This document shows positions 18,134 through 18,769 of a DNA stretch of 64,000 bases, piece by piece. The first letter of the stretch is position 1. Every line of letters starts with the position of its first letter. The notes beneath the pieces are model-generated. The model did no database searches and was not told where the DNA came from. It saw only the letters and a program-made list of their open reading frames with translations. The DNA is from an uncultured Planctomycetota bacterium. GTDB lineage: Bacteria > Planctomycetota > PUPC01. Location: contig CAYLQD010000002.1 of assembly GCA_964385685.1 (NCBI GenBank), positions 20,704 through 84,703 of the forward strand. Direction: 5' to 3'. A program made the position numbers and the translations under genes.

Positions 18134-18162
18134 TTGGTATAGACGTCCCGAAGCTGTATAAT
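18134..18162 (+). promoter_or_regulatory. Promoter-like TTGGTA-17-TATAAT upstream of the mini-lipoprotein ORF array
   Basis: Read directly. Confidence 0.4.
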
Positions 18163-18224
18163 CGGGGGGTTGGCGGCGGTGTTCGATGGCAACGCCCCGC
18201 AGGTATGCAAGAGGAGGAACCGAC

Positions 18225-18305
18225 GTGATAAAGCTGTTTCTCCTGCTGACGGCCCTGATAATCCTGGCCGGTGGCTGTTCCGACATCTGGCCGTGGCCGC
18301 CGTAG
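18225..18305 (+). CDS. Mini-lipoprotein-like peptide 1 (26 aa): MIKLFLLLTALIILAGGCSDIWPWPP
   Basis: GTG start 7 nt after a GAGGAGG RBS. Hydrophobic signal-like segment plus a 'AGGC' lipobox-like Cys. Paralogous at nucleotide level to ORF 18413-18490. Confidence 0.4.
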   Translation: MIKLFLLLTALIILAGGCSDIWPWPP

Positions 18306-18412
18306 CCCTGAGCGGCGCTGGCGTCTGTCCGAAGGGACCGGCGGCTCTGAAGCGCCGCCGGACCGACTCCGGTGGGCCGCTGTCCGAACCTTCTAGGCAA
18401 GGAGAACTAAAC

Positions 18413-18490
18413 ATGATCAAGCTCGCTATCGTGCTGGCGACCCTGATGAGTCTGGCCAGTGGTTGTTGGTCGGAGATCTGGCGGTTCTGA
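18413..18490 (+). CDS. Mini-lipoprotein-like peptide 2 (25 aa): MIKLAIVLATLMSLASGCWSEIWRF
   Basis: ATG 8 nt after an AAGGAG RBS. Same architecture. Shares the 'S[DE]IW' mature motif with peptide 1. Confidence 0.4.
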   Translation: MIKLAIVLATLMSLASGCWSEIWRF

Positions 18491-18549
18491 CGTTCCGCCC
18501 GGCGATTCCACGGGCTCTTGCCCGAAGCTCTGCGCGTGGGGAACCTCCC

Positions 18550-18627
18550 ATGTCCAAGGTGCTTCTGCTGCTGCTCGCCGTCCTGGCTGCCCTGATCGGC
18601 GGCTGTTCCGAGCTCGGCCCGATGTAG
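18550..18627 (+). CDS. Mini-lipoprotein-like peptide 3 (25 aa): MSKVLLLLLAVLAALIGGCSELGPM
   Basis: Same architecture (hydrophobic N-terminus, 'IGGC', 6-residue tail). Weaker RBS. Confidence 0.3.
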   Translation: MSKVLLLLLAVLAALIGGCSELGPM

Positions 18628-18648
18628 CGCGCTCCGCCGGGTCTGGGA

Positions 18649-18698
18649 ACACGTACCGATCCCCTTCCGCCGAAGACGGAAGGGGCTTCCGGTACATG
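18649..18698 (+). terminator. Long imperfect hairpin after mini-ORF 3 (core CCCCTTCCG-7-CGGAAGGGG), carries the repeat-family 15-mer gaacacgtaccgatc
   Basis: 9-bp perfect stem plus extended outer arms. No T-tract. Confidence 0.3.
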
Positions 18699-18769
18699 TC
18701 CCCGTCCGGTCCCCGTCCGCCGCCGACTCGCCCCGCTCTCGCGAACTGCGCCCTCCCCCCGCCCGTTCG

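Follow-up and report, generated by a model that had tools for sequence, protein, structure and literature searches.

What are the three minute open reading frames (ORFs), each specifying a product of only 25 or 26 amino acids (aa), that lie between two longer genes in a 64,000-nucleotide (nt) stretch of DNA from an uncultured Planctomycetota bacterium (contig CAYLQD010000002.1; the whole of this stretch is called the window below)? The original prediction had read them as tiny lipoprotein-like genes that would give lipidated peptides if signal peptidase II cuts their products, a reading supported by several features retained across related genomes, namely, the distance from start codon to Cys, a lipobox-like Gly-Cys, a Ser-Glu/Asp pair, and the short tails that follow. 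On comparative sequence evidence, we conclude that these mini-ORFs are very probably real protein-coding genes under purifying selection and not an RNA element. The explanation that accounts best for the locus, and one that we consider likely to be right, is that three paralogous genes for ultra-short pro-lipoproteins form a small operon that is transcribed independently.

All three ORFs stand in the 1.1-kb gap between a lipoprotein gene on the minus strand and the gene for a 338-aa secreted protein on the plus strand (Table 1), with exactly the coordinates and translations first reported for them. The product of ORF1, MIKLFLLLTALIILAGGCSDIWPWPP, consists of MIKLFLLLTALIILAGGC followed by SDIWPWPP; that of ORF2, MIKLAIVLATLMSLASGCWSEIWRF, of MIKLAIVLATLMSLASGC followed by WSEIWRF; and that of ORF3, MSKVLLLLLAVLAALIGGCSELGPM, of MSKVLLLLLAVLAALIGGC followed by SELGPM. 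The mature lipopeptides predicted from them are CSDIWPWPP, CWSEIWRF, and CSELGPM. A mature part of 6 to 8 residues had been proposed, which is right for the residues after the Cys; once the Cys is counted, the lengths become 9, 8, and 7 residues for ORF1, ORF2, and ORF3, respectively, and 7 to 11 across the family described below. We scanned the whole 64 kb for a start codon, at least 10 small or hydrophobic residues, a Cys, and no more than 12 residues to the stop and recovered the three mini-ORFs and only one weak match besides. Dinucleotide shuffles gave 0.58 ± 0.80 matches per 64 kb with the same pattern, and three same-strand matches within 400 nt are therefore far beyond chance. In this window of 67% G+C content, the G+C fraction at third codon positions is 0.77 to 0.88 in the mini-ORFs (0.81 in ORF1) and 0.83 to 0.92 in the neighboring real genes. 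ORF1 and ORF2, which had been proposed to be paralogous at the nucleotide level, are indeed identical at 54 of 84 aligned nucleotides, against 39.9 ± 3.2 in shuffles, and ORF1 and ORF3 at 53 of 84; the comparison of ORF2 with ORF3 (43 of 80 identical) is no better than shuffles (39.6 ± 3.4).

Table 1. Features of the mini-ORF locus and its immediate surroundings (positions in the window)
Feature	Position	Strand	Remarks
Lipoprotein gene (MNRHVFLLAACAALLATAVGC...)	16981-17691	-	Weak DUF1080/3-keto-disaccharide-hydrolase match (PF06439, 23.4 bits, below the cut-off of 26.8)
Hairpin-repeat island	17787-18068		Inverted repeats; separates the mini-ORF promoter from the divergent lipoprotein gene
Sigma-70-like promoter, TTGGTA-17-TATAAT	18134-18162	+	10 of 12 consensus matches
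Shine-Dalgarno sequence, AGGAGG	18212-18217	+	7 nt 5' of the ORF1 start
ORF1 (mini-ORF 1, type A)	18225-18305	+	GTG start, TAG stop; 26 aa
Shine-Dalgarno sequence, AAGGAG	18399-18404	+	8 nt 5' of the ORF2 start
ORF2 (mini-ORF 2, type B)	18413-18490	+	ATG start, TGA stop; 25 aa
ORF3 (mini-ORF 3, type C)	18550-18627	+	ATG start, TAG stop; 25 aa
GC-rich hairpin 3' of ORF3	18649-18698	+	Core stem 18653-18695; -45.4 kcal/mol, z = -2.67 versus shuffles
Promoter-like TTGCAT-16-TAGAAT of the 338-aa gene	18770-18797	+	Kept in L001 (~4922-4950) and L203, where the rest of the spacer is not
Gene for 338-aa secreted protein	18822-19838	+	Prenyltransferase/squalene-cyclase-like (alpha/alpha-toroid) fold, from Pfam

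To recover relatives of the mini-ORFs, we gathered loci around relatives of the 338-aa neighbor in a genome collection, together with contigs encoding its homologs, and scanned them for mini-ORFs. The closest relatives of the window are uncultured Planctomycetota genomes assembled from metagenomes, and 10 further genomes have one or two mini-ORFs at the corresponding place, next to a neighbor protein 68 to 81% identical to that of the window. The family comprises 18 distinct peptides, of which 17 come from the DNA of 11 genomes of one uncultured Planctomycetota clade and one (P0127, MVKKLLLWLVTLALLAGGCHWSEIWPWRM) from a representative-protein library only. The peptides encoded at the other loci end as follows: ...FVSGCSEIWRF and ...LISGCSEFGPM in L001; ...LVSGCSEIWQF and ...LISGCSELGPM in L203; ...LAGGCHLSEIWPWSM in L006; ...LAGGCLSEFIPWSM and ...LVGGCSEFIQPM in L204 (= L205, L206); ...FVAGCTSDFMPWKM in L208 (= L209); ...LAGGCSELIPWSM in L211 (= L212); ...FVAGCSEFWQPM in L213 (= L214); ...LAGGCSELVPWSM and ...IVGGCSEFNPM in L215; ...FVAGCSELWQPM in L217; and ...LAGGCSEVFPWSM and ...IVGGCSEFNPM in L218.

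The tails fall into three types. Type A has the form C-(0-2 residues)-S-[DE]-hydrophobic-x-P-W-[SKRP]-[MP] and includes ORF1 and its orthologs ending in PW[SKR]M in L006, L204, L208, L211, L215, and L218, as well as P0127; the Pro-Pro end of ORF1 is unique to the window, the orthologs ending in WSM, WKM, or WRM. Type B, C-(W)-SEIW[RQ]F, unites ORF2 with orthologs that end in SEIWRF (L001) and SEIWQF (L203) and whose tail codons differ synonymously. Type C, C-SE[LF]-(1-2 residues)-PM, unites ORF3 with orthologs in L001, L203, L204, L213, L215, L217, and L218. Types that co-occur are always ordered A, B, C, and all three are found together only in the window. The family was seen only where the neighbor protein is at least 68% identical to that of the window; no mini-ORFs were found at this position in L008, L009, and L220 (neighbor 58 to 65% identical) or in L002, L004, and L005 (72 to 78% identical).

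The conserved features of these ORFs are those of protein-coding genes. The start codon lies 17 to 18 codons before the Cys in all 18 ORF copies, most of which have a Shine-Dalgarno match 5 to 9 nt upstream, and the stop codon lies 6 to 10 codons past the Cys in all family members. A profile built from the 18 copies scores its members at 39.5 bits or more and the best nonmember at 7.4 bits in six-frame translations of ~100 related loci. Across the 17 codons that end with the Cys, the sense frame has an amino acid identity of 0.44 and no other frame exceeds 0.34; the BLOSUM62 score per site is 1.93 versus at most 1.33, and no member has a sense-frame stop. Nucleotide differences are most frequent at codon position 3 (44%) and fewest at position 2 (23%). 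At synonymous sites the proportion that differs is ~0.6, which is close to saturation, and the ratio of nonsynonymous to synonymous differences per site (pN/pS, a simple estimate) is ~0.5 over the signal part, compared with 0.095 over the type B tail; the values for the type A and C tails are unreliable because these tails are of unequal length and the alignment is gapless. The window, L001, and L203 align well over the ORFs only, their intergenic DNA not being alignable, and the SEIWRF tail codons of the three show synonymous changes such as TCG/TCC and CGG/AGG. Conservation of the reading frames, which the original prediction had set as its test, thus holds in 10 further genomes: the frame is never broken and the nucleotides around it are not conserved, and among the related loci we found no homologous region that keeps the nucleotides but breaks the frame. 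Genes on the antisense strand were also considered and were rejected, as the similarities in the other frames mirror the same 20 to 30 codons, score lower, and have no common starts or stops.

Gene callers miss the mini-ORFs because genes of this kind are below 30 codons, and the family is correspondingly scarce in protein collections. Two large libraries (5.8 billion and 1.84 billion clustered proteins) hold only four of its members. The exact 25-aa product of ORF3 has been called as a gene by the Joint Genome Institute (P0123), while the products of ORF1 and ORF2 have not been so called by public pipelines, and public gene calls show nothing at the mini-ORF site in L081, L203, L204, L208, L215, and L218. 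A profile of the three window sequences recovered three matches among 1.84 billion representative proteins, all of them from the same clade. When six peptides were joined as a single protein-database query, none of the 8,000 candidates scored had an E value of ≤10, Leu-rich words having probably filled the candidate list. A scan of metagenome DNA with GGNTGYTCNGANATHTGGMSNTKB (G-C-S-[DE]-I-W-x-x) gave at least 120 matches, and those listed are all chance matches, with no signal-like upstream sequence. Two public calls do overlap the region in relatives: a 108-aa call without a Pfam match runs antisense over the mini-ORF in L211/L212 (1344-1670, minus strand), and a 45-aa call lies in the mini-ORF 5' leader in L213/L214 (2533-2670). 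Both are probably spurious calls in GC-rich DNA.

The encoded peptides have the anatomy of lipoprotein signal peptides with almost nothing attached. All 18 members begin with Met and have a Lys or Arg at positions 2 to 4 (K3 in all three window ORFs), then an uncharged core of 13 to 14 residues, and then an invariant Gly-Cys, preceded by small residues, with the Cys at position 18 or 19; Ser-Glu/Asp follows the Cys either directly or after one or two inserted residues. Every member conforms to a PROSITE PS51257-type lipoprotein rule: a K or R occurs in the first seven residues, followed by an uncharged stretch and [LIVMFWSTAG](2)-[LIVMFYSTAGCQ]-[AGS]-Cys, with the Cys at position 15 to 35, and in each there are six uncharged residues before the box and an [AGS] at -1. 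The window ORFs carry LAGGC, LASGC, or LIGGC as their box, and relatives carry VSGC, ISGC, VAGC, or VGGC. The strict lipobox [LVI][ASTVI][GAS]C fits about half of the members (VSGC, ISGC, VAGC), with AGGC, ASGC, and [IV]GGC lying outside it. Larger predicted lipoproteins of the same clade, among them the divergent DUF1080-like neighbor and a 257-aa window protein with SAGGC, have the boxes SAGGC, LAAGC, TAVGC, and GSGC, with the Cys at position 18 to 24. Searches of Pfam and NCBIfam with the window peptides and 17 family members gave nothing that reaches a cut-off, but the Pfam lipoprotein lipid attachment site model LPAM_1 matches 9 of the 17 members weakly (best E = 0.00095). The two best PDB profile matches, at subsignificant E values of 0.06 to 0.09, lie on the N-terminal signal peptides of two proteins, PelC and TraV. 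The PDB entry of TraV names it a lipoprotein, and PelC and the third PDB match, a pullulanase, are presumably lipoproteins as well. The hydrophobic stretch of 13 to 14 residues has the length of a signal peptide and falls short of the ~18 or more that span a membrane; as it is too short for a stable transmembrane helix, we read the genes as encoding pro-lipoproteins.

We infer, with considerable confidence, that the products are lipidated and cleaved, in a course that can be extrapolated from the established Lgt/LspA/Lnt pathway and the positive-inside rule for the steps of insertion, lipidation, and cleavage. A single transcript would start at the 18134-18162 promoter and end at the 18653-18695 hairpin. 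Each product of 25 or 26 residues would leave the ribosome and then insert posttranslationally into the cytoplasmic membrane, with its basic N terminus held inside while the short acidic tail crosses. Lgt would transfer diacylglycerol onto the Cys, LspA (signal peptidase II) would cut before it, and the new amino group would be acylated by Lnt, if the organism has Lnt. The end products would be lipid-anchored CSDIWPWPP, CWSEIWRF, and CSELGPM, of 9, 8, and 7 residues.

Several points weigh against this reading. Half of the lipoboxes are AGGC, with Gly at -2 and Ala at -3, and so depart from the strict consensus, and the ribosome-binding site of ORF3 is weak. A 25-residue product is complete while still within the ribosomal tunnel, and its membrane targeting must therefore follow translation; to our knowledge, there is no demonstrated Lgt/LspA substrate as short as 25 residues. 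Every locus was found via the same neighboring gene, which biases the sampling, and the adjacency to the DUF1080-like gene described below could merely be gene order inherited within one clade.

Of the alternatives, the one that survives best, though we think it unlikely, is that the genes are real and their products remain unlipidated, as unprocessed single-pass hydrophobic micro-proteins acting either as membrane regulators or in the manner of type I toxins such as Ibs, Ldr, and ShoB, the Cys serving, for example, in a disulfide-linked dimer. Small size, hydrophobicity, and tandem arrangement are shared with several type I toxin loci, whose arrays (Ibs/Sib, Ldr/Rdl) consist of tiny hydrophobic ORFs in tandem duplicates that are missed by gene callers. 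The coding conservation fits such micro-proteins equally well, it is unusual for the lipoprotein pathway to act on a 25-mer, and one member has weak Pfam matches of the holin or transmembrane type. However, an uncharged stretch of only 13 to 14 residues is of signal-peptide length, the positions that never vary coincide exactly with those of a lipobox (small residues from -3 to -1, with Gly at -1 and Cys at +1), and these boxes recur in the larger lipoproteins of the clade. Type I toxins have a full-length transmembrane helix, an antisense RNA, and no lipobox, and none of these toxin features is seen in the mini-ORFs; a consensus scan, which cannot exclude such a site, found no promoter-like site on the antisense strand of 17600-18900, and the strong ribosome-binding sites show no sign of sequestration in the predicted fold. 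The toxin-antitoxin role offered as an option in the original prediction finds no support.

Pro-lipoprotein genes also account for the locus better than a second, still less probable alternative, in which the peptides are precursors of exported signaling or antimicrobial peptides, the N-terminal part being an export leader and the last 6 to 10 residues being released in soluble form (as in SHP/XIP, the enterococcal inhibitor peptides, or darobactin-like peptides). The pheromone genes of Firmicutes (SHP/XIP, iCF10/iAD1) have ~20 to 25 codons and encode hydrophobic peptides whose last seven or eight residues, often aromatic, are the active heptamer or octamer, a size and layout that match those of the mini-ORFs, and the tails of the latter are rich in Trp, Pro, and Phe and conserved by type, in an array with its own promoter. 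Yet the pheromone genes lack a lipobox Cys at the junction and come with receptor and transporter genes, whereas in none of the 11 genomes is there a gene for a modifying enzyme, a dedicated transporter or exporter, or a receptor beside the mini-ORFs. Their neighbors encode instead the DUF1080-like lipoprotein, GH123, URO-D, a membrane protein, and the prenyltransferase-like protein, the last of which is widespread without mini-ORFs. The invariant Gly-Cys indicates signal peptidase II as the enzyme that cuts here, after which the peptide would stay anchored to lipid. Pheromones derived from signal peptides differ in another way: their active part is the signal peptide, whereas in the mini-ORFs it is the tail that is conserved.

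The array appears to form a transcription unit of its own. The TTGGTA-17-TATAAT promoter postulated for it is present and is the only sigma-70-like site on either strand of 17600-18900 (shuffle mean, 0.0), and the strong ribosome-binding sites postulated 7 to 8 nt before ORF1 and ORF2 are likewise found, as the two Shine-Dalgarno sequences of Table 1. Despite a G+C content of ~67%, a TATAAT or TATACT box lies 44 to 156 nt 5' of the first mini-ORF in 8 of the 11 loci, the window included. Paralogs in L204, L215, and L218 are separated by only ~17 to 35 nt. The hairpin 3' of ORF3 is likely the end of the transcript, without a U-tract, and is missed by a terminator scan because it has no T-run. 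The downstream 338-aa gene has a promoter-like box of its own, missed by the consensus scan because its -35 hexamer matches at only three of six positions. Taken with the -10 boxes in relatives, these elements suggest that the mini-ORFs are transcribed independently of that gene.

It is very improbable that the ORFs act as upstream ORFs or encode regulatory leader peptides (for instance, with ribosomes stalling at WPWPP-stop), or are parts of a structured RNA, with the peptide itself irrelevant: ORF1 does end in Pro-Pro-stop after Trp residues, a context that slows termination, and the array does lie upstream of the 338-aa gene on the same strand, but the Pro-Pro end is confined to the window, the hairpin and the separate conserved promoter-like box precede the downstream gene, an opposite-strand GH123 gene separates the mini-ORFs from the 338-aa gene in L208, L215, and L218, the fold of the mini-ORF transcript is no better than shuffles (z = -0.04), no Rfam family matches 17000-19500 at an E value of ≤1, and the conserved lipobox and tails are protein-level features.

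Set beside known systems, the mini-ORF products resemble generic bacterial lipoproteins (Lgt/LspA/Lnt substrates; PS51257; LPAM_1) in their basic start, hydrophobic core, and lipobox within the first 17 to 18 residues but differ in a mature part of 7 to 9 residues here, and 7 to 11 in the family, with no folded domain. The product is therefore sized like the synthetic lipopeptide Pam3Cys-Ser-Lys4 and not like a protein. Entericidin A/B (PF08085) offers a parallel in its small chromosomal lipoprotein genes, EcnA and EcnB also forming a tandem pair, and an entericidin-like product had been among the options first entertained. We reject that identity: an entericidin needs a mature amphipathic helix of ~20 to 30 residues, for which tails of 6 to 10 residues after the Cys are far too short, and neither the three window peptides nor the 17 family members match PF08085 at an E value of ≤10. 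The Agrobacterium entericidin family member Atu8019 is 53 aa long, of which 32 belong to the mature part (PMC7296081). For a short peptide that is tethered by lipid and acts as a ligand, LptM (YifL) offers the best precedent; its lipobox and the short stretch after the lipidated Cys are conserved and functionally important, and that stretch docks into LptDE (PMC10567701). LptM differs in its size of ~6 kDa, its occurrence in Proteobacteria, and a post-Cys sequence of Gly-Leu/Gln-Lys-Gly-Pro versus Ser-Glu-hydrophobic in the mini-ORFs. The NCBIfam model for LptM (NF047847) reaches 14.4 bits at best against a cut-off of 27.7, in one relative and over residues 1 to 18 only, and the Pfam model (PF13627) matches 3 of 17 members at E values of ≥0.78; because the NCBIfam match is below threshold and limited to the signal peptide, the mini-ORFs are not LptM. 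PflE of Campylobacter jejuni, with 57 aa, of which 41 are mature, has an essential lipobox Cys (position 17) and localizes a partner protein (bioRxiv 10.1101/2025.04.02.646747). It is thus likewise a small anchoring lipoprotein with a lipobox Cys, but without sequence similarity to the mini-ORFs, which also have no flagellar context. In the searchable literature on lipoproteins of very small size, on those of planctomycetes, and on small ORFs encoding a lipoprotein signal peptide, we found no lipoprotein with a mature part of under ~30 residues; papers found on the smallest lipoproteins dealt only with those of human plasma.

In 8 of the 11 genomes, the mini-ORFs are directly adjoined by an ortholog of the DUF1080-like gene that runs on the opposite strand. 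In several loci, the mini-ORFs are separated from the prenyltransferase-like gene by an inserted gene, either GH123 on the opposite strand or URO-D (L208/L209, 710-2305; L215, 1236-2840; L218, 1239-2840; L211, 1743-2882), and in these the mini-ORFs still adjoin the DUF1080-like gene. The 338-aa gene is followed by the gene for a 1,321-aa DUF4175 protein (the two spanning 18822-23829), a pair kept in all relatives examined. The 338-aa protein has at least 589 relatives in the genome collection, many of them from Planctomycetota, and among its 80 best loci only L001 and L006 have mini-ORFs. We considered a ComX/ComQ-style link between the mini-ORFs and this prenyltransferase-like gene and rejected it, given this wide occurrence without mini-ORFs and the separate promoter-like box.

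The hairpin-repeat islands that were said to bracket the array are both present, the downstream one being the hairpin 3' of ORF3, but the upstream island is incidental. It contains three copies of the palindrome CCCGT[TG][CA]ACGGG, against a chance expectation of 0.03, as well as nested inverted repeats whose arms reach 70 nt; it has no counterpart in related loci and so looks like an inserted element of the repetitive extragenic palindrome or miniature inverted-repeat transposable element type, and because of this absence it is not part of the conserved unit. A second contig, L081, has an identical 338-aa gene and shows a 99.8% match to the window from position 17767 on, all 10 mismatches falling within the repeat island (17769-17931). 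On the 5' side of that junction (L081 position 1946), it has a GH116 gene in place of the DUF1080-like gene. The junction reflects either a rearrangement between strains that was mediated by the repeat or a chimera formed in assembly at a dispersed repeat.

As for what the lipidated peptides might do, the tail types are kept among orthologs and distinct between paralogs, and we therefore take each tail as a ligand for a separate partner; a membrane-tethered peptide ligand for a different envelope partner in each case is a speculative role that we weakly favor. Candidate partners, equally speculative, are the DUF1080-like lipoprotein encoded next door or a domain that recognizes C-terminal peptides. 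The Trp-x-Phe end of type B resembles the aromatic C terminus of outer-membrane proteins. More tentatively, and with the odds against it, the lipoprotein pathway may here be making genetically encoded tri- or diacylated 7- to 11-mers that are in effect small molecules, without any dedicated biosynthetic enzymes, as a new class of ribosomally made lipopeptides. The three head-group types could then be envelope signals, specialized membrane or surface lipids, or mimics of protein C termini, and type B, by its likeness to outer-membrane proteins, could engage outer-membrane assembly or PDZ-type stress sensors.

In the family as a whole, the lipoprotein pathway would be acting on peptides the size of a head group. 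If they are lipidated as predicted, the mature peptides of 7 to 11 residues would be much shorter than any bacterial lipoprotein that we found described (entericidin-type lipoproteins, PflE, and LptM have at least 32), and the Lgt/LspA pathway would be yielding head-group-sized lipopeptides straight from the ribosome. With only four library members, the family is almost invisible to annotation, and similar families in other phyla may therefore be common and overlooked. The three tail types, conserved among orthologs and distinct among paralogs, would provide a handle for finding envelope partners in Planctomycetota, whose cell envelope remains poorly understood.

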